NCBI GenBank assembly: GCA_964619725.1
Contig: CAZUFC010000021.1
Span: 1 to 64,000, forward strand
Origin: an uncultured bacterium
Lineage (GTDB): Bacteria > CSSED10-310 > CAZUFC01
DNA: 64,000 nt
Direction: 5' to 3'
Below the pieces are notes generated by a model. It did no database searches and had not been told where the DNA came from. It worked only from the letters and a program-made list of their open reading frames with translations. A program made the translations under genes and the position numbers. Position 1 is the first letter of the stretch. Each line of letters begins with the position of its first letter. Positions 22,980 to 60,730 of this stretch are shown one piece after another.

Positions 22980-23050
22980 ATTGATCGAAAATGCCTCTTT
23001 TGAGGTTACGATTCTACAGAATTTCCCATCATTTTGTTTTGATTGCGATT
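22980..23050 (+). repeat. Dispersed 71-bp repeat, copy 1
   Basis: Ungapped alignment to 33092-33162 with 11 mismatches by manual count (shared TCTTTTGAGGTTA..ACAGAAT.TCCCATCATTTTGTTT.GATT). Confidence 0.85.
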
Positions 23051-23148
23051 GCGATACCGACTGCGATATCGACCCCGACCCCGATACCGATACCGGCGCC
23101 GATGCCGATACCGATACCGATACCGATACCGATATCGATACCGATACC
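23041..23148 (+). repeat. Degenerate hexanucleotide tandem array (consensus GATACC) x18
   Basis: gattgc gattgc gatacc gactgc gatatc gacccc gacccc gatacc gatacc ggcgcc gatgcc gatacc x4 gatatc gatacc x2. Confidence 0.95.
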
Positions 23149-23461
23149 GAAACAGCCGGTCATTGATGAAAAAACGGCGGTTCATTCTTCAAGGAGATAG
23201 TTTTGGGTCAGGAGCGGTTTTTACGGGAATTTCATACAGTCAAAAATTTTATGAAACAGTGTAACCCCGGTTTGATCCGTCCTGAATTATCTCATAGGAG
23301 TTTTGGGAATTTCCTGTTTTCCTGGAGGTTAAAAAGACGTACAATAGGGCGGTTAATTATCGGATTGCGATAATGGGGCACGAGGTTCAATTAAGTCGGG
23401 AGAGGGATTTGAGCGATTGAACGGTAAAGATGAGTTTTAAATTGTATTCAAGGGAGGTTCA

Positions 23462-25516
23462 ATGAAGAAGATGGGAGGCGTAGGACGAGGGATCAAGGGA
23501 ATGTTGCCGGTCATAATTCTGCTTGCGGCAGGAATGGTTGGAGGGGCGGAAGGACCGCCGCCTTACGCAGCGCCGGAAATTTCCGCCGGCTCTTTAACGG
23601 GTGAGGAAATCCGGGTGTGGGAGGCGGCGCTTCATTCCATACTGCTGGAATGGGAGGATATGCGATTCAAGAAGGATTATGTGGATGATCCTTACAGGCT
23701 TGATGCGGTACAGAGGGCTTTGGACGATCCTGTATCGCTGATTGAGTGGAATTACGGATGGGATGCGTTTTTACTGGAAGGCAAAGCGACAAGCGACATT
23801 TTGTTTCGGGCTGCCGGGGACTTGGATTGCGGCATAACGAAGAAGAAAGCCGGGAAGATTATTCCTGACGACCATACGATAAGTTCCTGGACGAGATACG
23901 GTTTTACTGCTGAATGGAGCCGCAATTTTTCGTTGACCGAGCATGCCGTTTCAAATGCTTCGGAGGCGGTGAAGGCGGAAGCTCTTGGGAGTCTGACGGA
24001 CGAGGAATTGGCGTTTTTACGGAGTTATCTGTTGTGCCGGTTCGAAGAGGAGGAAAAATTAGAGGGAGTGGAATGTCCGGAAGAGGAGGAGTACGGAGCG
24101 GATGAGATGTTTCTGGAGTCGATGGAACATTATGATATAGAGGCTTTGTTGAAAGCTGCCGTGAAGCTGGTCGGTGCGTTGGAGGAGCTGCTGCCCGGAA
24201 TAGAGGAGTATGGAGAACAATGGGGAGTAGAGACTCAGACGATGATAGAGCGTGATTACGGCAACATTTTAATGGGGACGGAGGGAGATGACGTTTGGTT
24301 GATGGAAGAATGGGGGCCTGCTGCGATACTGATCGATCCGGGGGGAAACGATATTTATCGAGGTCAGGTCTGTGCTGCCGGAAATTTTATCGGGGAGAAG
24401 AATCCGCTGATAAGCCTGTTGATCGATATTTCCGGAGACGACACGTATATCGCCGAGGGAAAACGCGCTGCAGGATCGGGCGTATTAGGCATAGCGGTTC
24501 ATTATGATCTGGATGGGGACGATATCTACCGTTCGGGCAAATTCAGTCAGGGGTGTGGTCTTTTCGGCGTCGGCATACTGGATGATCGCCGGGGAGACGA
24601 TATTTACTATGCCGATCTGCTGGTCCAGGGAGCAGGCGCTGCAGGCATCGGGCTGCTTCAGGACTCTGCCGGCAGGGATAATTACCAGGCTGCTTTTTAT
24701 GCTCAGGGTTTCGGTTACACCCTGGGATGGGGTATGCTGACGGACCGTGACGGGTACGATCATTATTACGCAGCCGGGAAATACGACGCGTGGCCGACCT
24801 GGGGGACCTGGATGCTGAGTTGTTCTCAGGGGTATGCATTCGGAATACGCCCTGTCGCAAGCGGCGGCATTGGAATATTGCATGACCGGAACGGAAAAGA
24901 TTTTTATTCGGCGGAAGTTTTCAGCCAGGGAGGCAGTTACTGGTACGGCATTGGAGCGCTGATCGACGACAATGATAATGATCAATATACTGCAGGAGTA
25001 TATTCGCAGGCAGCGGGAGTTCACCTTTCTGCGGGCATTCTGCTTGATCGGTCGGGTAATGATGATTACACATGCGATCATCAGGCCCAGGGTTTCGCTC
25101 ACGATTTCTCCGTCGGCTGGCTGATTGATGAAGCGGGAAACGACAATTACAGCGCCAAAACCAACGCACAGGGCTGCGCGGTTACAAACAGCACCGCGGG
25201 AATAATCGACAGAGAGGGCGACGACGGCTATCTGTGCCGGGATGCGAAAAAAGGATCGAGTTACGGGGAAACGACGAGAGGATACGGCAATATTGGGATA
25301 CAGATCGATATGAAGGGTAGGGACAGCTACTCTTATCCGGAAGCGGGCGACGGAAAATGGTGGACCTTGCAATCATGGTATGCCGGCATTGATGTCGGTG
25401 ATGACTGGTATGTTGTGGAAGATTCAAAGCAAAAAACAGATGAAGAGACCGGCGTTAAAGTGGAACCGCCTCGCCGGCTTATTATCCCGGGAATTGACGA
25501 TCAGGGAGGTGAATAA
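23462..25516 (+). CDS. Secreted hypothetical protein with many DxxGxDxY/QGxG repeats
   Basis: Signal peptide; repeated units such as IDPGGNDIY, DLDGDDIY, DSAGRDNY, DEAGNDNY with SQG.G spacers; RBS GGGAGG. Confidence 0.8.
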   Translation: MKKMGGVGRGIKGMLPVIILLAAGMVGGAEGPPPYAAPEISAGSLTGEEIRVWEAALHSILLEWEDMRFKKDYVDDPYRLDAVQRALDDPVSLIEWNYGWDAFLLEGKATSDILFRAAGDLDCGITKKKAGKIIPDDHTISSWTRYGFTAEWSRNFSLTEHAVSNASEAVKAEALGSLTDEELAFLRSYLLCRFEEEEKLEGVECPEEEEYGADEMFLESMEHYDIEALLKAAVKLVGALEELLPGIEEYGEQWGVETQTMIERDYGNILMGTEGDDVWLMEEWGPAAILIDPGGNDIYRGQVCAAGNFIGEKNPLISLLIDISGDDTYIAEGKRAAGSGVLGIAVHYDLDGDDIYRSGKFSQGCGLFGVGILDDRRGDDIYYADLLVQGAGAAGIGLLQDSAGRDNYQAAFYAQGFGYTLGWGMLTDRDGYDHYYAAGKYDAWPTWGTWMLSCSQGYAFGIRPVASGGIGILHDRNGKDFYSAEVFSQGGSYWYGIGALIDDNDNDQYTAGVYSQAAGVHLSAGILLDRSGNDDYTCDHQAQGFAHDFSVGWLIDEAGNDNYSAKTNAQGCAVTNSTAGIIDREGDDGYLCRDAKKGSSYGETTRGYGNIGIQIDMKGRDSYSYPEAGDGKWWTLQSWYAGIDVGDDWYVVEDSKQKTDEETGVKVEPPRRLIIPGIDDQGGE

Positions 25517-26643
25517 TGCGCCGAAAAGCCGTTATCCTGTTTTTATGCAGCGCCGTTGCGGTATACATGAGCGTTGTTTTTGCCGGATCGGAAAGTGAAG
25601 GGCGTAAGTCGGAAATAGAAGATGAGGTCCGATCTCCGGATCAAATAGAGGTCATTCGTGACGGGGAAATCGTCGAAGATGCCGTATTGGAACTATTCAT
25701 CAATGCCAGCGAATGGGACGACGAGCATCAGGACGTGAGGTACGAAAGCGAAGAGAAACTAGTTGAGCTGGGAGCTCGGATATTGCCTGTCATCCTGGAA
25801 AAATATCTGTCGTCCAGGGACCTCAGAAGACGTATTACGCTGGATTCCATCGTTAGTGAAATAGGCAGTCCTGCTGCAGATTCTCTGCTGGAATATCTGA
25901 ACAGTGAAGATATAACTGCCCGGCGGCATGCCGTTTATCTGCTTGGTGAGTGTACCTTTGTCGAAACGATGGAAAACGATGCCTTGTTGGGCCCCCTCCA
26001 GGAAGACTTGAAAATTAGAGATGCGCTTTTGAAAACCTTGAATTCAGAAAATGATCACAAGGTGATCAGGTCTCTGTTGAATTCACTCGCACGAATCAGA
26101 GACCCGGACCTTATTGAAGTGATTGCGGGTTATCTCAATCATGAAGATCAAACGCTGAGATTATCCGCTGCTGTCGCCTTAAAATATATTCCGCACATCG
26201 ATACCGTTAAACGGCTCCTCAATGCCCTTGATGATCCGCTGGGCACCGTTCGTCAGGCTGCGGCAGTCAGTTTATCCGCTGATGCCGTCGCAGATGCAGG
26301 ATTCGATTTGATAATAGACCTGGAAAATGGAAGAGAAATCAATTCTGCGGCAAACGCCTTTCGCTTTGAAATCCTTACGGATTATCTGAAAAAAAACAGC
26401 GATAAAGATTCAGAGAATCTGCGATGCCAAAAAAACAAAATATGCCGGAAGGCTGAAAGCGTTTTACATCCGAATTCAAATGCCGGCTGGAGACTCAAGG
26501 CATATGCCGCACGCGCCGCAGCATTCTGCGAAAACAGGCAGAACGCTCTTAATATGCTTCAGGGTTTGTTGAAAAAAGAGTCTCATCCGTTTTTGACCGG
26601 CGCCGTGAGACAGACTCTTGAATATCTGGAACAGGAAAATTAA
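25516..26643 (+). CDS. Secreted HEAT-repeat protein
   Basis: Signal peptide; HEAT/PBS-like units (ARRHAVYLLG, LRLSAAVAL, VRQAAAVSL); TAATG coupling to the upstream gene. Confidence 0.8.
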   Translation: MRRKAVILFLCSAVAVYMSVVFAGSESEGRKSEIEDEVRSPDQIEVIRDGEIVEDAVLELFINASEWDDEHQDVRYESEEKLVELGARILPVILEKYLSSRDLRRRITLDSIVSEIGSPAADSLLEYLNSEDITARRHAVYLLGECTFVETMENDALLGPLQEDLKIRDALLKTLNSENDHKVIRSLLNSLARIRDPDLIEVIAGYLNHEDQTLRLSAAVALKYIPHIDTVKRLLNALDDPLGTVRQAAAVSLSADAVADAGFDLIIDLENGREINSAANAFRFEILTDYLKKNSDKDSENLRCQKNKICRKAESVLHPNSNAGWRLKAYAARAAAFCENRQNALNMLQGLLKKESHPFLTGAVRQTLEYLEQEN

Positions 26644-26715
26644 AAACGTTTTATCTTGACTTGCTATTGCTTTGATGATATTCATTCCTGCTCATTTGGA
26701 AAGGATTGAGCGACA

Positions 26716-28005
26716 ATGAAAATAAAAAAAGAAAAAAATGAAAACGACGACTTTAAAACAATAACAAAGAAGATTGAGAATTCAGGGAATAAAAAAGTTG
26801 TTATCTTTTCGCATGATGATCCTGACGGAATAACTAGCGCCATAATGTTGAATCGCCTGTTGAAAAAAATCGGGGCTGTGGTGGAAGTTAAATTCCCCGA
26901 AGGTTTTGTATTGACGAGTGAGCAGGCGGCAGAAATGGGTGAGAATACGGATTTAATGTTCATATTGGATAAAGGGACATTCAAGTCTTACGATCAATTT
27001 TCCGGGTCTGCAAAAAAGGTGATTATTATAGATCATCATCCGCCGGGAGATTTGCCTGAAAAAGCGTTGTTTTATAATCCGTCGAAGTATGAATATACTC
27101 GATGTTCCAATTCGGCAGTGATTCGGCGTTTTATAGAAACGATAAATACGGCGGACGTCTGGGATGATTTTTACAGTTTGATGGGACTGACGGGCGATTT
27201 TGCGGTTAACTCTGTAACGGAAGAATATGCTGAATTTGATAGTGAATTCGTGAAGCGGATGCGGGAAAATTTTAAAAATTTATTTCAGCCGACCGTCCAG
27301 CGTCCGACTATGTTTGAAGTTGAGCAGCGGGAAAAGACGAGTCTGCTGCATCAATTGACGGAGGTTGTTCATGCTGTGAGCGGCGGAGGATTCCAGTTTT
27401 TTTATTCCGAGCGTGATCCCCGACTGCAGGATATTGATCCGCCAACCTACATATTCAAGCAATTGAGCAGTTTGATGAATTCCGGCGAAGACCCCAAATC
27501 ATGGGAATCGGTTGATCAGTTTATCGCTGCCTTACCGAATCCTGAACCGGGTCGTCTTATGTATGATTTTTACCTTCAGGATTGGGATTATTACAGCCAG
27601 TTGATTGATGCCGTTATTCCGCTTGCGAAGATCAGGGATGAGGAGATTTTTCTTTTCTGCTGCGAAAACTTCAAGTTGGGGCCGATGATAGCTCCGGTGA
27701 AGCTGCATGAACTGCATCGGAACAGGCAATTCAAAGAAGCTTTGATCATCATGTATAACATCAAAGCCGATCAGGATCGTTTTTCATTCCGGACATTCCC
27801 GGGCTCTAAAACTGTAGATGCGGACCTGCTGGCCAGGCAGTTGACGCAAAATCTTAAACAGATCGATTCTTCGGGTAATATTGCAGGAGGAGGGCATCCG
27901 GTAGCTTCGGAATGCACTGTCGTTTCCGATAAGCTTACTCCTAAAGACACATTGAAGGCATTGTTTGAAGAGATAGAGAAGTTAAAAAGCGCATTAGAAA
28001 AATAA
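26716..28005 (+). CDS. DHH/DHHA1-family phosphoesterase
   Basis: HDDPDG, ILDKG, IIDHH, GLTGD and C-terminal AGGGHPVAS. Confidence 0.88.
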   Translation: MKIKKEKNENDDFKTITKKIENSGNKKVVIFSHDDPDGITSAIMLNRLLKKIGAVVEVKFPEGFVLTSEQAAEMGENTDLMFILDKGTFKSYDQFSGSAKKVIIIDHHPPGDLPEKALFYNPSKYEYTRCSNSAVIRRFIETINTADVWDDFYSLMGLTGDFAVNSVTEEYAEFDSEFVKRMRENFKNLFQPTVQRPTMFEVEQREKTSLLHQLTEVVHAVSGGGFQFFYSERDPRLQDIDPPTYIFKQLSSLMNSGEDPKSWESVDQFIAALPNPEPGRLMYDFYLQDWDYYSQLIDAVIPLAKIRDEEIFLFCCENFKLGPMIAPVKLHELHRNRQFKEALIIMYNIKADQDRFSFRTFPGSKTVDADLLARQLTQNLKQIDSSGNIAGGGHPVASECTVVSDKLTPKDTLKALFEEIEKLKSALEK

Positions 28006-28081
28006 AGAAAATTTTAAAAAGCATCAGACGATTCTACAGCAATTTGTCGGATGGCGAACCAGAAAGTGATGAGGTTGAACG

Positions 28082-28489
28082 ATGACATGGAGCGAATCTG
28101 ATTTTCCAAAACTTTTGGATGAGTTTTTGCGAATAATAAAAAGCGATCATTCAAATTCGTTTAAAACAGGATATATTGAACTGGCCCTGAATTGGCAAAA
28201 CATTGCGCCGATTTATCCTGCGATTATTTCCGAGGTGGCGGCTAAAGCTGAAAAGCATGTTAGTGTCAATGATTTGAAGAAGGGGTGTATCGTTTCCGTA
28301 AAAAGGGGAGATGTCAAGATCACGGGTAAGTTTGAAGGTCTGGAAGAGGGTAAGATGAAATTATCTGAGGTTACTGAAGAGAAGCGTCATGATTCTTATT
28401 TTGTCGATGCGGACGACGACGTTTTGATGTTGGACAGGGATGCATTTTATGAAGATTGGTCCACTCTCGAACCCAAAGAAATAGAATAG
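28082..28489 (+). CDS. Hypothetical protein, possible Sm/SH3-like beta-barrel
   Basis: GAGGT RBS, operonic position; segment LKKGCIVSVKRGDVKITGKFEGLEEGKMKLSEV has an Sm1-like pattern (fold is inference). Confidence 0.7.
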   Translation: MTWSESDFPKLLDEFLRIIKSDHSNSFKTGYIELALNWQNIAPIYPAIISEVAAKAEKHVSVNDLKKGCIVSVKRGDVKITGKFEGLEEGKMKLSEVTEEKRHDSYFVDADDDVLMLDRDAFYEDWSTLEPKEIE

Positions 28490-28512
28490 TGAAAGCAGAT
28501 GGTGTGAATACA

Positions 28513-29754
28513 ATGAACAAAAAATATTTAAAACAGATTAAAGGCCCTGCGGAAATAGAAATACTCAAAGGAAAAGTTGAGATAATAGGATATCCTCATG
28601 AGCGCGGATACCGCTTATCGATTCCCCCCGGAAAATCAATCCCGTTAGCGCTGGATTCAGAAGATCAGATAAGATGCGAAACGGAAAACGAAGAGAACAT
28701 AACGAATTTAAAGAGTTTTACTATTCCCCAGACCTGGCTTGAGATAGTAAAACGGATAAAAGAGCAGAAGCTTCGCAAGATATTGGTATTAGGCGAAATG
28801 GACACGGGAAAATCGTTTTTTTGTACCTATCTGGCCAATTCTCTGCTCTATTCGGGGCTGGAACCTGGAATTCTGGATTGCGATCTGGGGCAATCGGATA
28901 TCGGACCTCCCGGAACTCTCGGTTTCCTGAAAGTCGTCCGTCCCCTGACTTTTATTAATGAATCAGACCCGACGCTCCTGGGCTTCATCGGCGCTCATTC
29001 TGCCGGTTTGCACATGCTAAAGGTCATAACGAGTTTTCACGGGTTGGTGACCAAGGCCATGAAGATGTGCAGTACGCTGATCGTCAATACTTCAGGCTGG
29101 GTCAACGAAAGCGGAAGGGCTTTAAAATGGGCGAAAATAGAATTTATGGACCCGGATTTAACTGTCTTTCTGCAGAGGGAAAACGAGTTGGAGCACCTTT
29201 ATAAAATGGTTCCAGAGGAGAAAGCCTTCAAACTGCATGTAAAAATCAAAAAAGGTTTAATCGCTACCAAGGCGGAAAGAAAAAATCTCAGAGAAACGGC
29301 ATCCAAAGCTTACTTCAAAGATAGCGGGGAAAAGAGCTTTTCCTTTTCAGAGTTTACTGCGGTCGGAGCTTTTTTAGGGTCCGGAACCTTTCGAAGCGAT
29401 CTTGAGAGGCGGCCGGAAATAGTTCATGCTGAAATACTGCCGAGTTTCGAAGGCGCTTATATCGTGGTGAAAAAGGATACGGACCCGGAAACGATCCAGA
29501 AAATCAAAAAAGAATTCAGGACGACCAAGGTAATTGAAGAAGGATACGAAAAGGGGACGCTGATAGGGCTGGCGAACTCGCAAAACGTATGTTCAGCTTT
29601 GGGCATAATAAAGAAAATTGACTGGAACGCCAAGGTTCTGCATTGCGTTACTCCTTTGAAAAGCTCTGAACCTATAAAATTTGTTCATTTCGGTTCTTTG
29701 AAATACAATTTTGCAGGTGAAGAAGCAGGCTTCCTGGCTCCGGGTTCCATTTGA
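28513..29754 (+). CDS. Clp1/Grc3/Nol9-family polynucleotide 5'-hydroxyl kinase
   Basis: Walker A GEMDTGKS, DCDLGQSDIGPPG, VNTSGWV, lid ERKNLRE; N-terminal KGPAEIEILKGKVEIIG domain. Start reset to ATG 28513. Confidence 0.88.
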   Translation: MNKKYLKQIKGPAEIEILKGKVEIIGYPHERGYRLSIPPGKSIPLALDSEDQIRCETENEENITNLKSFTIPQTWLEIVKRIKEQKLRKILVLGEMDTGKSFFCTYLANSLLYSGLEPGILDCDLGQSDIGPPGTLGFLKVVRPLTFINESDPTLLGFIGAHSAGLHMLKVITSFHGLVTKAMKMCSTLIVNTSGWVNESGRALKWAKIEFMDPDLTVFLQRENELEHLYKMVPEEKAFKLHVKIKKGLIATKAERKNLRETASKAYFKDSGEKSFSFSEFTAVGAFLGSGTFRSDLERRPEIVHAEILPSFEGAYIVVKKDTDPETIQKIKKEFRTTKVIEEGYEKGTLIGLANSQNVCSALGIIKKIDWNAKVLHCVTPLKSSEPIKFVHFGSLKYNFAGEEAGFLAPGSI

Positions 29755-51122: not shown

Positions 51123-51863
51123 TCACATCGGCGCCGACGGCAAATCGAAGGTCGAAAAATTCCACGGCGGCCAGGGCGTCGTGATCACGAAGGACCTTAT
51201 TCCCTTCGACTTGAATTCCTGCTCCAGCGATTCTACGAAATTTTGAGCATCCTGCTTCCGGCATAATATGTTTATATTCCCCATTACCTGACCGCCGGAC
51301 TTCGAAAAATCCCAGTTGAAATCAACCAGCTTTCCGTTGCCCGCCTTCCGGATTACAGGCAACAAATTCTTTAATCCCGAATCGCTGCCTGATTCCCTCC
51401 CTTCATGTGACTTCAAATATAAAGTCCCGGGACCGAATCTCAATGATATGTCGCGGGATGATGAGGAATCCGCAAATAAAAATGAATCCCCGTTCATACG
51501 GCCTAAACGTATCTTTATCCCGAACTCCACCATGCCGTGCAAACGGTCCAGACTCTCCTGGATTATCTCGCTCTGATGCTTCAACGTCTCACGCAATGAA
51601 GACGATGAACCGAATTTTAATCCGAATCGTACCGGTATCATCTCGTTCGTCTGATTAAATATCTCTCGAACAACTCGATGATGCTGAAACTCCGCCATCG
51701 AATTATCCGGGTCCAACTCCTCCTCGGTATGCTCGGAAACAATCGCCTGAAAACGGTCAACTGATACTGATACTACTCGCCTGTTCGCTATACCCGTTAT
51801 TGCGCCGTTTTTCATCGGAAATGCTCGCGTTATCCCGTAAAGGTGTATCCATAGCCCGCCCAT
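51123..51863 (-). CDS. GvpL/GvpF-family protein
   Basis: LYGIT..GI..AIVSE..HHRVV..IPVRFG..L.G.VEFGIK..GTLYL..PWPPWNF. Confidence 0.82.
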   Translation of the reverse strand: MGGLWIHLYGITRAFPMKNGAITGIANRRVVSVSVDRFQAIVSEHTEEELDPDNSMAEFQHHRVVREIFNQTNEMIPVRFGLKFGSSSSLRETLKHQSEIIQESLDRLHGMVEFGIKIRLGRMNGDSFLFADSSSSRDISLRFGPGTLYLKSHEGRESGSDSGLKNLLPVIRKAGNGKLVDFNWDFSKSGGQVMGNINILCRKQDAQNFVESLEQEFKSKGIRSFVITTPWPPWNFSTFDLPSAPM

Positions 51864-52237: not shown

Positions 52238-52549
52238 ATGGAAGAAAAAATAAAAAGTTCATGGGAAATAGCGATGGAGAAGCTTGGGATGGATAAGGAG
52301 CGAGAAGGTAAGCTGACGGAGGAGCAGCGAAGGAATCTGGAAGAGTTGAGGAAGGAGTACAAGGCGAAGCGAGCAGAATTGGAGATAATGTTGAAGGCGA
52401 AGCTGGGGAAGTTGGCTGACCGGACGCGTCCTGAGGAGATACACATGAAGCGGGAGCAGATGAAGAAGGAGTATAGTGAGGAGCTGGAGAGGCTGAGAGA
52501 GGAAGAGGAAGCGAAGCGGAAGCGGATAAGGATGGGCGAGCGGGATTGA
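52238..52549 (+). CDS. Small coiled-coil hypothetical protein (KSSWEIAMEK N-terminus)
   Basis: AAGGAGGT RBS before ATG 52238; overlaps the next gene by TTGA. Confidence 0.75.
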   Translation: MEEKIKSSWEIAMEKLGMDKEREGKLTEEQRRNLEELRKEYKAKRAELEIMLKAKLGKLADRTRPEEIHMKREQMKKEYSEELERLREEEEAKRKRIRMGERD

Positions 52550-53520
52550 GGCGTTGTATATTAGACATAGGTCGCTGGTTTTTCTGGTTTCCGGTAAGGG
52601 AAGTATTATCGAGGCTGCCGATCCGTTATATACCGAAGGCGGCGCGTGTGATGGGGATGTTGCGCGGCGGCATATCGATTCGTAAGAAGAATGCGGCGCG
52701 ATCTGAATTCAGGCGGGTAACGGGGGAGGAATTGAGCGAAGGGGAGATGGACGAGATAGTGCGAAGGAGTTCGGTATTATCGATGGAGTCATTAATGCTG
52801 AGTTTCGTATATCCGCGTTTGACGGAGCGTAATATCTGCCGGGTGATAACGACGGAAGGGACGGAGTTATTGGACAGGGCTCTTGAGGGTGGGAACGGCG
52901 TCATTCTGTTATTGGCGCATTTTGGAGCGAACCAGTTATGCATGCCGGCATTGGGGTATGCCGGATATCGGATCAATCAGTTGGCTGGAGCGCCTGAGGA
53001 CTGGCATAAGCTGACGCGGGTAGTACCGCGGAAGATAGAGCGAAAGATTTTCGACGTGAGATTTCGTCTGGAGAGTCATCTGCCGGTAAATTTCATATTT
53101 GTCCGATCTACGATGAGGCCGGCGCTGGAATGTTTACGCAGGGGCGAGATATTAATCATGGCGTTTGACGGAAGGGCGGGAACGCAATGGTTGGAAACGC
53201 GATTTTTCCGTCGGAAGTTGAATATTTCGACGGGACCATTTTCGTTATCCAGGATTTCCGGTGCGCCCATTCTTCCTTTGTTCGTAATAAGAAGGCCGTC
53301 CGGCGGATTCCTGTGCAGGATTGAACCGGCTATTGAAAAGATTCCTGCAGATTCGGGACGCAAAGGCCTGTCGAAGGCGGCCAGAGAGTTTGCTTCCATA
53401 CTGGAACGATATGTGAAAATTTACCCCTGTCATTATATACAGTTACTGGCGGAGGCGAGGTTAAGGGCGAATTTTGATCCGGTTCCCCTGTTTATTGACA
53501 ATCAGGAAGGAATGTCTTAA
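52546..53520 (+). CDS. LpxL/LpxP-like lysophospholipid acyltransferase family protein
   Basis: GTELLDRALEGGNGVILLLAHFG, LRRGEIL..AFD, FF..GP..L...GAPILP, YPCHY. Confidence 0.85.
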   Translation: MRRCILDIGRWFFWFPVREVLSRLPIRYIPKAARVMGMLRGGISIRKKNAARSEFRRVTGEELSEGEMDEIVRRSSVLSMESLMLSFVYPRLTERNICRVITTEGTELLDRALEGGNGVILLLAHFGANQLCMPALGYAGYRINQLAGAPEDWHKLTRVVPRKIERKIFDVRFRLESHLPVNFIFVRSTMRPALECLRRGEILIMAFDGRAGTQWLETRFFRRKLNISTGPFSLSRISGAPILPLFVIRRPSGGFLCRIEPAIEKIPADSGRKGLSKAAREFASILERYVKIYPCHYIQLLAEARLRANFDPVPLFIDNQEGMS

Positions 53521-53532
53521 TCTGAGAAGGCT

Positions 53533-54378
53533 ATGAAGTCTCCAACCCACAGAGCCAAGCCGGATTATTCGATAGCAGTTTTTTTCTCGTTGGAAAAAGA
53601 AGCGCAAGGCATGATCAAGGCGGCCGGTTTGAAGAAATCGGATTCGCTGGTCGGATTAAAGGTTTATGAAGGGATATATGAAGGCTTGAAGTTGTTCGTT
53701 ATTTTGACGGGAGTCGGAGAACGCCGGGCGGAAAAATCGGCAAGAAAATTTCTGAACGCCATCAGGCCGTCGTTCGTTATCTCATCAGGATGGGCCGGCG
53801 CCCTCAATGAAAATTTCAGGGTAGGAGACCTGCTTATTCCGACTAGAATCACCCGATGCGCGGACGGAGTTTCCCTGGTTCTGGACGACCGTATCATTGA
53901 ACTGATTAAACCCTGCTTGAAGGAGTTGCCCATTCATTATCCCCATTCCGGGCTGACGGTCGACCGGGTTTTCGACAAGGAGCAGAAGGTTTCAATCAAA
54001 AAAAAATATCCTTATGCGGGTATGGTCGACATGGAGTCTTGCGCGGTTTTGAATGTTTTGAACTCTCAGGGGATTCCCATATTGATTCTTCGTTCTGTCT
54101 CCGATTCTTATCATGCAAAACTGCCGAAAATAGTAACGCAATTTAGTTATTATCGCGGAAAAAAGAAATGGCTGCAGCTAGCCGCTTTAATTCTTAATCC
54201 TCTTGAAGCGATGAGGATACTGAGGATTACTTTTAATTGCTGGAAAGCCGAAAGAAACCACACTCAAGCATTGCTGCGGCTGATAAAAGAATTTCCGCTC
54301 ACCGACATGGACAAAAGAAGCGCCCGTTTTCAAACGGGGTCTCAGTTTTCTGCTGGAGAAACTCCCGAAAAATATTGA
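53533..54378 (+). CDS. PNP/MTAN-family nucleoside phosphorylase-like protein
   Basis: TGVG..A, SSGWAGAL..VGDL, VDMES, LRSVSD. Confidence 0.85.
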   Translation: MKSPTHRAKPDYSIAVFFSLEKEAQGMIKAAGLKKSDSLVGLKVYEGIYEGLKLFVILTGVGERRAEKSARKFLNAIRPSFVISSGWAGALNENFRVGDLLIPTRITRCADGVSLVLDDRIIELIKPCLKELPIHYPHSGLTVDRVFDKEQKVSIKKKYPYAGMVDMESCAVLNVLNSQGIPILILRSVSDSYHAKLPKIVTQFSYYRGKKKWLQLAALILNPLEAMRILRITFNCWKAERNHTQALLRLIKEFPLTDMDKRSARFQTGSQFSAGETPEKY

Positions 54379-54452: not shown

Positions 54453-54524
54453 AGGCACGTAGCTCAGGGGGAGAGCGCTACCTTGACGCGGTAGAAGTCG
54501 ACGGTTCGAAACCGTCCGTGCCTA
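54453..54524 (+). tRNA. tRNA-Val(GAC)
   Basis: Acceptor AGGCACG/CGTGCCT, D arm GCTC/GAGC, anticodon arm CTACC-TTGACGC-GGTAG, T arm GACGG-TTCGAAA-CCGTC; CCA not encoded. Confidence 0.95.
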
Positions 54525-57924: not shown

Positions 57925-59487
57925 TTGAATTATGTCTTACCGTCGATAGTGTTCATAGTAGTTACAGCGGTAAGTTTTCTATTAGGACAGGTGATAAGCC
58001 GCAGGAAGACTTCGAAAATAATCGATAAAACTGAGGAGGAGCGCGGCAAAATACTGTCCAGGGCTGAGCATAAAGCTGAAACTATGATTAAAGAAGCCAA
58101 ATTGGAAGCAAAAGAGAAGTTTTTCACGATGAAGTCAGATTTTGAGAAGCAGACGAAGGATCGTCGTGAGGAGCTTCAGGCGATGGAGAAGCGATTTCAT
58201 CAGAAGGAAGAGAACATAGATCGCAAATTATGTCTTCTGGAGCAGAAGGATCATAACTTACACAAGAGAAAAAATGATCTGGATCGCCGGCAGCGCAAGC
58301 TGGAGAACAAGGAGAAAGAGGTAGATCGGATATTGAAGGAGCATCAGACGACGCTTGAGCGGATAAGCAGTTTAACGGCTCAGGATGCCAAGAAGATGTT
58401 GATGGATTCCATGGAAGAGGAAGCCCGGAGGGATGTGGCGGTATCGATCAAGCGCATAATTGACCGAGCGTCAGACGAATCGGATAAAAAGGCGAAAGAG
58501 ATAATCAGCCAGGCGATTCAGAGGTGTGCATCGGAGCATGTTGTAGAGACGACGGTTTCGGTGGTTGATTTGCCGAACGACGAGATGAAGGGCCGGATAA
58601 TCGGCCGAGAAGGACGCAACATAAGGGCATTGGAAATAGCGACAGGTATTGATCTTATCATTGACGACACTCCCGAAGCGGTTATCCTTTCGGGTTTTGA
58701 TGCTATAAGAAGGGAGATAGCGGCTATATCCTTGAGGCGCCTGGTTGCGGACGGACGCATTCATCCTGCGCGGATCGAAGAGATCGTCAAGAAGGTTGAA
58801 AAGGAGATGGAGTCGAACATAAAGGAATTAGGCGAGCAGGCCGTTTTTGAAGTCGGAATACAGGGTCTGCATCCTGATGCGGTGAAGCTGCTGGGGCGAC
58901 TGCGGTACCGGACCAGTTACGCGCAAAATGTTCTGCATCATTCCATCGAAGTCGCTTTTTTATCGGGCATAATGGCTGACGAACTGGGAGTGGATTCTCC
59001 CGTGGCGAGGCGAGCGGGTTTGCTTCATGATATCGGAAAAGCCATGGACCACGAAGTTGAGGGTTCGCATGCCAAGATCGGGGCTGATCTGGCCAGAAAA
59101 TTCAATGAATCTCCGGCAGTTATCGAGGCGATAGCGTGTCATCACGGAGAAAAACAGCCGCATTCCATCGAAGCGGTGCTGGTGCAGGCCGCTGATGCGC
59201 TTTCAGCAGCGCGTCCCGGGGCTCGACGTGAGATACTTGAGACTTACATCAAGCGGCTTGAAAAGTTGGAGTCTCTGGCGGATTCGTTCAAAGGGGTCGA
59301 TAAGTCCTATGCCATTCAAGCGGGGAGAGAAATCAGGATCATCGTCAAACCGGATGAAATAAACGACCCCGAAATGTCTGTATTGGCCAAGGACATAGCG
59401 AACAAGATTGAAGACGACCTGGAATATCCTGGAGAAGTTCGCGTTACCTGCATAAGGGAAACCAGGACGGTTGAATATGCAAAATGA
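57925..59487 (+). CDS. rny: Ribonuclease Y
   Basis: N-terminal TM, coiled coil, KH ([13 protein letters not shown]), HD (LLHDIGK); TTG start after AAGGAGGT. Confidence 0.97.
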
Positions 59488-60633: not shown

Positions 60634-60730
60634 GGAAGCGGAAGAGTCCTGGTGGGCTCTCTGGACTTCAAATCCAGTAACGGGCTCTAGAAAAGTCCGT
60701 GGTGGGTTCGATTCCCACACGCTTCCGCCA
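60634..60730 (+). tRNA. selC: tRNA-Sec(TCA)
   Basis: Anticodon arm CTGGA-CTTCAAA-TCCAG, long D stem, long variable arm ACGGGCT..AGTCCGT, T arm GTGGG-TTCGATT-CCCAC, ends GCCA; 97 nt. Confidence 0.93.

Follow-up and report, generated by a model that had tools for sequence, protein, structure and literature searches.

A conserved gene trio of a RecJ/Cdc45-like DHH nuclease, a small protein and a Clp1-type kinase as a candidate nucleic-acid salvage module

According to the available portions of a survey of Clp1 proteins from the three domains of life (PMC6777427), eukaryotic Clp1 serves the 5'-phosphate ligation pathway, RtcB uses a 3'-phosphate pathway for which no Clp1 is needed, and the distribution of Clp1 in bacteria is rare and patchy. 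The same portions report polynucleotide kinase activity for the Clp1 protein of Thermus scotoductus (Ts-Clp1) and assign no biological role to bacterial Clp1. In yeast, tRNA introns are handled by the kinase Rlg1 and subsequently degraded by Xrn1 (PMC4102763, part of the text available), and the internal transcribed spacer 2 (ITS2) is processed by the kinase Grc3 together with Las1 (PMC5900568, part of the text available). Here, a bacterial Clp1-type kinase gene is described that forms the third member of a gene trio, preceded by the genes of a RecJ/Cdc45-like DHH phosphoesterase and of a small protein. The trio is located on a stretch of 64,000 nucleotides (nt) from an uncultured bacterium of the lineage CSSED10-310 (contig CAZUFC010000021.1, positions 1 to 64,000), which is referred to as the window. 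Its recurrence in other genomes and the genes that accompany it there suggest that the trio serves to recycle nucleic acids and not to repair RNA.

The three genes recur together as a module, and their adjacency is far beyond chance. Clp1 homologs were collected by a pattern search and tblastn, seeded with an alignment of Clp1 and applied to a single genome of each species. This yielded 547 confirmed stretches, of which the best 80 were kept as loci. A profile of the small protein detected exactly one open reading frame (ORF) in each of 70 of the 80 loci, always on the Clp1 strand, with its end located anywhere from 3 nt within the Clp1 match to 267 nt ahead of it. Two of the remaining ten loci lack upstream DNA (at least 500 nt were required for this count), which brings the share of loci with the small gene immediately before Clp1 to 70 of 78; seven or eight Clp1 loci are devoid of it. 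The DHH gene was identified by tblastn in 49 of the 80 loci. Where at least 1900 nt of upstream DNA were available, it was present in 47 of 70 loci, being directly adjacent in 40 of them and located 3.1-4.8 kb upstream with intervening genes in seven. Judged by record titles, the bacterial loci belong to Riflebacteria/Ozemobacteraceae, Elusimicrobia/Endomicrobia, Hydrogenedentes, Avigastranaerophilus, Mcinerneyibacteriota, Caldiserica, Lindowbacteria and several bins labeled only as "bacterium", and five Hadesarchaea bins represent the archaea among the 80 loci. In Hadesarchaea loci, a second and different DHH/DHHA1 gene of 468-492 amino acids (aa) directly precedes the trio (L075:320-1798, L081:4561-6039, L084:4759-6165). 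The reverse test was performed with metagenome contigs seeded on the DHH family, using strong matches with at least 1500 nt of downstream DNA (n = 37). The small gene and Clp1 followed downstream in 19 of these 37 loci, and whenever there was room after the small gene, it was followed by Clp1. The conservation on which the initial annotation had made its proposal of an RNA end-processing operon dependent is thus supported from both ends of the trio. In the window, the genes are co-oriented as described there, with intergenic gaps of 76 bp and, if Clp1 begins at its ATG codon, 23 bp (Table 1).

Table 1. Positions of the trio genes and of the proposed promoter element in the window.
Feature	Position	Strand	Length or remark
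TTGACT hexamer, proposed -35 box	26656-26661	+	present, promoter not supported
DHH-DHHA1 phosphoesterase, RecJ/Cdc45-like, predicted exonuclease	26716-28005	+	429 aa
Small protein, unnamed family	28082-28489	+	135 aa
Clp1/Nol9/Grc3-family polynucleotide 5'-hydroxyl kinase	28513-29754 (ORF open from 28456)	+	413 aa from ATG 28513

By sequence, the third gene product belongs to the Clp1/Nol9/Grc3 family and is a predicted 5'-hydroxyl (5'-OH) polynucleotide kinase. The Pfam domain CLP1_P was matched with 115 bits (E = 5e-33; cut-off 26.6) over profile positions 1-187 of 188, while the N-terminal beta-sandwich domain Cupin_NOL9 scored 21.1 bits, below its cut-off of 27. The catalytic motifs that had been read as intact from the sequence are invariant in an alignment of 30 kinase sequences: G94, D97, G99 and K100 of the P-loop, D122/D124/G126/Q127, and R256, L259 and R260 of the lid. 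A profile of the kinase retrieved the solved structures of NOL9, human and worm Clp1, and Grc3 with E values from 1e-22 to 2e-6. All signatures of the Clp1 kinase domain are present, and the gene is the only CLP1_P gene in the source genome. The CLP1_P domain, the P-loop, the DxDxGQ and RxxxR lid motifs, and the rare and patchy bacterial distribution are shared with the known family including Ts-Clp1. In contrast to these relatives, the clade of the window kinase (approximately 413 aa; identity to database proteins 42% or less) nearly always has the gene of a dedicated small protein in front of it.

The first gene encodes a DHH protein that was matched by the Pfam family DHH with 47 bits (E = 4e-12; cut-off 28.1) and by DHHA1 with 18.8 bits, which is below the cut-off of 25.9. 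Its catalytic positions are invariant in an alignment of 23 sequences (H33/D35/D37, D85, D106-H107-H108, D161, S357/R359 and G391-G392-G393-H394), in keeping with the intact DHH and GGGH motifs noted initially. An AlphaFold (AF2) model built on this 23-homolog alignment reached a predicted local distance difference test score (pLDDT) of 92 and a predicted TM-score (pTM) of 0.90. The top Foldseek matches of the model were archaeal GAN, PfuRecJ and MthRecJ-Cdc45 with E values of about 1e-15; for the archaeal RecJ/GAN/Cdc45 structures 5x4h (PfuRecJ, Pyrococcus), 7e15 (GAN), 7bjq (MthRecJ-Cdc45, Methanothermobacter) and 6tvv (MjaRecJ2, Methanocaldococcus), E values ranged from 1e-15 to 1e-13 and TM-scores relative to the query (TMq) from 0.44 to 0.65, the highest being reached by MthRecJ-Cdc45, of which one entry contains single-stranded DNA (ssDNA). 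Bacterial RecJ cores followed after the archaeal RecJ-type entries. NrnA, GdpP and pAp phosphatases ranked under all RecJ-type entries (E values of 7e-11 to 3e-9, TMq of 0.38-0.48), four to six orders of magnitude weaker than the best match, although such a ranking of folds alone leaves the substrate unsettled. Archaeal RecJ/GAN proteins were also the best sequence matches of the DHH family among solved structures. With RecJ-type exonucleases of ssDNA or single-stranded RNA as the best matches, the fold ranking suggests a nuclease of this type and not an enzyme acting on pAp or c-di-AMP, the latter having been named as an outcome that would speak against a joint function with the kinase.

The DHH protein has the fold of the archaeal RecJ branch but is no ortholog of archaeal RecJ. 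The NCBIfam model RecJ_archaeal gave 58.3 bits against a cut-off of 360 with only the first 120 positions aligned, GAN_nuclease gave 23.9 against 850 with the N-terminal DHH domain only, and the bacterial RecJ model TIGR00644 gave 50.1 against 396.9. With the archaeal RecJ/GAN/Cdc45 nucleases it shares DHH and DHHA1 domains separated by a helical insert, while sequence identity amounts to only about 14%. Bacterial RecJ carries an OB domain after DHHA1, whereas no RecJ_OB domain was detected in the window protein with Pfam and its chain stops shortly after the GGGH motif. Archaeal GAN has GINS and MCM as partners; the partners of the DHH family described here are instead the kinase and salvage genes. 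Many DHH homologs (for example those of L023, L038, L057 and L075) possess a C-terminal tail that ends in a conserved A-x-x-L-G-L-x-Y-L-like motif and that is missing from the window protein; this tail may serve for docking. Another protein of the DHH family, 44% identical to that of the window, is encoded on the minus strand approximately 1.3 kb past the end of the window (L106:5263-6600, which is G000:C21:65262-66599). Its motifs are degenerate (FSHDDPDG to FLSDNPDG, DKG to GKG, DHH to DNH and GGGH to TTGY), so this paralog looks inactive, and its neighbors are unrelated genes for a cytochrome c7-like protein, a sulfatase-NHL protein and an aromatic amino-acid lyase.

The small protein founds a new family, for which co-occurrence with Clp1 is the only property known so far. 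No family match was obtained in Pfam or NCBIfam, a word-based search with the window protein returned only itself, and an exhaustive single-sequence search yielded 11 proteins at E<=1e-3, namely the protein itself, seven proteins of 134-148 aa and three long proteins that matched over short stretches. ORFs that precede Clp1 in other genomes were used to build a profile, which defined a family of about 130-145 aa with conserved positions P43, Y45, G47, G68 and G82 and a C-terminal WPxLxF motif, from which the window protein diverges (WSTLEP). In the structural model (pLDDT 81), positions 7-56 form three helices and positions 70-101 three long strands, and the chain ends with a short helix. The initial annotation had described this protein as Sm-like. 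Its beta-sheet does bear a weak resemblance to Sm/LSm, and a comparison of 48 family members with Pfam gave scattered hits that all remained below threshold (HAS-barrel 6, eIF2_C 3, and PUA_4, LSM, LSM14 and ProQ_C 2 each). The family profile retrieved no solved structure below an E value of 0.002, with ribosomal uL24 (0.016) as the best biological match, and the best score of an atlas search with the small protein, 0.82, was under the informative level. The Sm-like nature is consequently retained as a weak lead. A complex prediction for the small protein and Clp1 scored 0.02 against a mark of 0.32, a result that gives no answer and counts neither for nor against binding. A search for fused forms identified a single case, a 305-aa protein (P0132) on a 1.8-kb contig, in which a C-terminal DHH part is joined in frame to the small protein; it is possibly a read-through, or else a rare fusion.

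To characterize the surroundings of the module, ORFs of the 80 loci were clustered and cluster representatives were named with Pfam and NCBIfam. Four gene orders recurred. In the first, an unnamed 260-aa gene is followed by ComEC (Competence and DUF4131 domains), ComEA, a 318-aa metallo-beta-lactamase (MBL) protein, the trio, NrdD and NrdG; ComEC was present in 17 loci, ComEA in 23, MBL in 26 and NrdD in 10. ComEC appears to be split in this arrangement (L023:1529-6043 and 16 similar loci), as a 976-aa DUF4131/Competence gene and a separate 318-aa MBL gene are found with ComEA between them, and the MBL protein aligns with positions 439-663 of the ComEC model TIGR00361, which correspond to its C-terminal MBL domain. 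The second order comprises the DHH gene, an MTAP-type nucleoside phosphorylase, a TIM barrel protein with weak similarity to CbiR/endonuclease IV and a P-loop kinase (AAA_33/dNK-like), in some cases PfkB and adenosine deaminase, and then the small gene, Clp1, DUF3006 and a phospholipase D-type (PLD) protein weakly resembling NucT/DrmC. The third order consists of CarA, CarB, adenosine deaminase, the small gene, Clp1, PhoU_div, a HAD hydrolase, DUF3006 and MBL. The fourth lacks the small gene and contains transketolase, a PHO4 phosphate transporter, PhoU_div, two phosphorylases, Clp1 and a HAD hydrolase, after which a NucT-like PLD protein, SpoVG and a large ComEA-like protein are encoded. Overall, a gene of the uptake or salvage type was present in 57 of the 80 loci, with nucleoside/nucleotide genes in 36 and DNA-uptake or nuclease genes in 48. 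An ORF of 227-237 aa follows Clp1 in seven loci, where it had been clustered together with Clp1, and the two copies that were scanned are HAD_2 hydrolases. A uridine kinase with an ATP-cone (L078) and Ham1 (L084) were each found as neighbors at a single locus. The DHH-seeded loci without Clp1 mostly carry either genes of the second order or an MFS transporter, a pyrimidine nucleoside phosphorylase and a canonical RecJ ahead of the DHH gene. Purine or pyrimidine nucleoside phosphorylases, PfkB, adenosine deaminase or a canonical RecJ are thus still neighbors of the DHH gene in most of them. A few of these loci are archaeal, judging by neighboring genes for TYW2 and an archaeal-type CCA enzyme.

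In view of these recurring neighbors, DNA or mixed nucleic acid is no less likely than RNA to be the substrate, and the RNA label that the locus had initially received is not supported. We consider it an even bet that the trio forms a cytoplasmic module in which the kinase primes the 5'-to-3' exonucleolytic breakdown of single-stranded nucleic acid to mononucleotides that feed nucleotide salvage. The analysis shows to which families the two enzymes belong, that their catalytic motifs are intact, that the gene order is conserved and what kinds of neighbors recur. For this scheme we infer all activities, the 5'-to-3' direction of the nuclease and its need for a 5'-phosphate, the nature of the substrate (DNA or RNA) and any contacts among the proteins. 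The fragments could be RNA, or they could originate from DNA that enters via ComEC/ComEA and is cleaved by nucleases of the MBL or PLD type; the link to ComEC and ComEA points to imported DNA as one of the sources. 5'-OH ends are left by some PLD-type and other nucleases, and Helicobacter NucT has reportedly been tied to the salvage of purines from DNA. The Clp1-type kinase would add a 5'-phosphate to fragments with 5'-OH ends at the expense of ATP, and the RecJ/Cdc45-like DHH exonuclease would digest the phosphorylated fragments from the 5' end to (deoxy)nucleoside monophosphates. Such a kinase would be of use for fragments with 5'-OH ends and a nuclease that requires a 5'-phosphate, and a 5'-phosphate pocket has been reported for bacterial RecJ. 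The small protein, whose gene is inseparable from the kinase gene, may be a substrate-binding or bridging subunit of the kinase. The products would enter nucleotide salvage and catabolism, where the HAD hydrolase would generate nucleosides and phosphorylases, deaminase, PfkB and transketolase would lead to bases and sugar phosphates; alternatively, they would be returned to nucleotide pools via NrdDG and kinases. A more specific version, which we regard as conceivable but rather doubtful, is a "DNA-eating" machine of RecJ/Cdc45-like nuclease, Sm-like adaptor and Clp1, in which DNA imported by ComEC would be 5'-phosphorylated and digested to deoxynucleoside monophosphates that pass on to phosphatase, phosphorylase and deaminase. 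It would operate at the cytoplasmic end of such a pathway in Hadesarchaea and in numerous anaerobic phyla that are uncultured.

Eukaryotic kinase-primed decay (Grc3-Las1-Rat1 and Rlg1/Trl1-Xrn1, as far as described in the available text of the yeast studies) offers an analogy, in that a 5'-OH end is phosphorylated for an exonuclease that depends on the 5'-phosphate, and Grc3 is a member of the same kinase family as the window Clp1. Unlike the Xrn1/Rat1 systems, the trio would employ a DHH nuclease, and no Las1-like endonuclease was seen. The eukaryotic systems process rRNA and tRNA, whereas the trio is found in the context of DNA uptake and nucleoside metabolism.

Several observations weigh against the proposed salvage function. 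Nuclease and kinase also occur apart from each other: 18 of the 37 DHH-seeded loci have no Clp1 within 5 kb, and 16 loci with the small gene and Clp1 lack a DHH gene in spite of sufficient upstream DNA. Moreover, the metagenome bins that contributed the loci belong to related lineages, and the counts therefore do not represent independent events. In the nearest genome of the window's phylum (G001), Clp1 is 35% identical, neither partner family was matched, and the Clp1 gene is flanked by an acyltransferase-like gene and a pseudouridine synthase. The window trio itself has no salvage or uptake neighbors, and the two ComEC loci of the source genome are found on other contigs. The archaeal RecJ relative MjaRecJ2 (6tvv) is a 3'-5' enzyme according to the title of its entry, and a 3'-5' polarity of the nuclease would render a 5' kinase irrelevant. 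A hint of DNA repair is given by SbcCD after Clp1 in L063 and by a canonical RecJ with an RNase_T insert before the DHH gene in L034. Finally, Ts-Clp1 prefers single-stranded RNA over ssDNA and resembles archaeal Clp1 in its biochemistry, as stated in the available portions of PMC6777427.

This RNA preference favors a housekeeping role in RNA processing or surveillance, in which the kinase would phosphorylate the 5'-OH RNA ends produced by endoribonucleases or toxins and the DHH nuclease would trim or destroy these RNAs. The module would then be a bacterial equivalent of Grc3-Las1-Rat1 or of the decay of tRNA introns and would be unconnected to nutrient salvage. Among solved structures, the nearest relatives of the kinase (NOL9, Clp1 and Grc3) are RNA-processing enzymes, the sheet of the small protein is weakly Sm/LSm-like, the trio stands alone in the window, and a MnmA-type tRNA enzyme (L053), an aminoacyl-tRNA synthetase-like protein (L075) and ribosomal protein S15 (L084) were found as RNA-related neighbors. 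Nevertheless, such neighbors are few and differ from locus to locus, while DNA-uptake and nucleoside/nucleotide genes are the commonest companions in all four gene orders, and we consider the RNA-processing role unlikely. A role in DNA repair or in the processing of transforming DNA appears less probable still; here the kinase would repair 5'-OH DNA ends and the RecJ-like nuclease would resect DNA imported by ComEC for recombination. It would agree with the position of the trio directly after ComEC, ComEA and MBL in the first gene order, with the similarity of the DHH fold to RecJ/GAN/Cdc45, and with SbcCD in L063 and canonical RecJ ahead of the DHH gene in L034 and in four DHH-seeded loci. 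No RecA, DprA, SSB or DNA ligase families were detected among the neighbor proteins scanned with Pfam, however, and nucleoside phosphorylases, deaminase, HAD phosphatase and phosphate-transport genes indicate the breakdown of DNA and not its preservation. Furthermore, genes for DHH proteins of RecJ length (571 and 575 aa) already exist elsewhere in the source genome.

The pairing of a 5' kinase with a phosphoesterase is also that of an RNA healing module, and eukaryotic Clp1 acts in 5'-phosphate ligation as mentioned above. RNA end-healing or repair ahead of a ligase, on the model of Pnkp-Hen1 or of a pathway that ligates 5'-phosphate ends, is nonetheless highly improbable. In agreement with the initial annotation, no ligase family was found in the window, neither at E<=1e-5 in the 37 other ORFs of at least 110 aa (of 46 non-overlapping ORFs) nor at E<=0.01 in the seven ORFs adjoining the trio; Hen1 and RtcA families were likewise not found in the window ORFs scanned, and RNA ligase, Hen1 and RtcA were missing among the neighbor proteins scanned with Pfam. 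The search of the source genome for RNA ligases (9.17 Mb in 344 contigs, 90.9% complete) did not detect the Rnl2-type family PF09414, and the only ligase family found was RtcB on another contig (C208). RtcB joins 3'-phosphate to 5'-OH ends, and a 5' kinase would block ligation by an enzyme that needs 5'-OH ends. In addition, the model of the DHH protein points to a RecJ-type fold and not to a 2',3'-cyclic phosphodiesterase. Like the trio, Pnkp-Hen1 and RtcA-RtcB contain an enzyme that modifies nucleic-acid ends, but no ligase, methyltransferase or cyclase accompanies the trio among the proteins scanned and its kinase belongs to a different family, so the early distinction from these two systems was upheld. 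Of the two functions first considered, kinase-primed decay fits the evidence and end-healing does not.

No publication that describes the trio as a module was found. A full-text search returned no paper that joins Clp1, RecJ and polynucleotide kinase and none that combines Clp1 with DHH and gene neighborhoods, although an earlier mention in Burroughs and Aravind 2016 (RNA repair systems) is possible. In the available body text of PMC6777427, the words "neighbor", "DHH", "RecJ" and "synteny" do not occur, and "operon" occurs once, in a cited title. Both enzyme families are already known; what we rate as new is the combination of Clp1, a RecJ-like DHH protein and a new small family as a putative kinase/5'-exonuclease pair in salvage. 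The conserved partnership with a nuclease and a small protein amid uptake and nucleoside-catabolism genes provides a concrete and testable role for bacterial Clp1. If the salvage function is correct, the step after ComEC would be named in the nucleic-acid feeding of uncultured sediment and gut lineages. If the more specific digestion of imported DNA holds true, it would be the first physiological role for bacterial Clp1, and the kinase-primed 5' decay of eukaryotic RNA processing would be an old prokaryotic strategy.

The trio had initially been thought to possess its own promoter with TTGACT as a -35 box. A consensus promoter scan did not call this hexamer, and promoter-like sites were as frequent as in shuffled sequences (6 versus 6.1 expected), which leaves an own promoter unsupported, neither shown nor excluded. 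Direct reading of the sequence identified Shine-Dalgarno-like purine-rich stretches ahead of each start codon of the trio (AAGGA, GAGG and GGTG, the last being weaker). An alternative Clp1 start at GTG 28489, which is used by the 421-aa database entry, would overlap the TAG stop codon of the small gene by one base. Upstream of the trio, a 684-aa protein without Pfam match, which contains repeated G-D-D-x-Y-like motifs, and a 375-aa HEAT-repeat protein are encoded on the plus strand (window 23462-26643) by genes that overlap by one base. As the HEAT-repeat gene ends 72 bp before the DHH gene, both genes could share a transcript with the trio in the source genome. They were rejected as members of the module, with tblastn matches in 0 of the 80 Clp1-seeded loci. 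A search for sequencing runs listed four DNA runs from one study labeled microbial mat metagenome and no RNA run.

Further observations concern the remainder of the window and the related genome G001. Ahead of the 684-aa gene, a short-period repeat at approximately 22981-23264 yields runs of D-T/D-C, P-I and R-Y dipeptides in the forward frames, which implies a tandem hexanucleotide-like repeat. In the second half of the window, a GvpL/GvpF gas-vesicle gene (51123-51863), a tRNA-Val gene (54453-54524), an RNase Y gene (57925-59487) and a tRNA-SeC gene (60634-60730) were noted. A gene of the Pfam family Lip_A_acyltrans is followed by a PNP_UDP_1-family gene at 52546-54378 on the plus strand. 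In G001 (L007:5733-7985, minus strand), Clp1 comes after a 326-aa ORF whose translation resembles a lipid-A acyltransferase.

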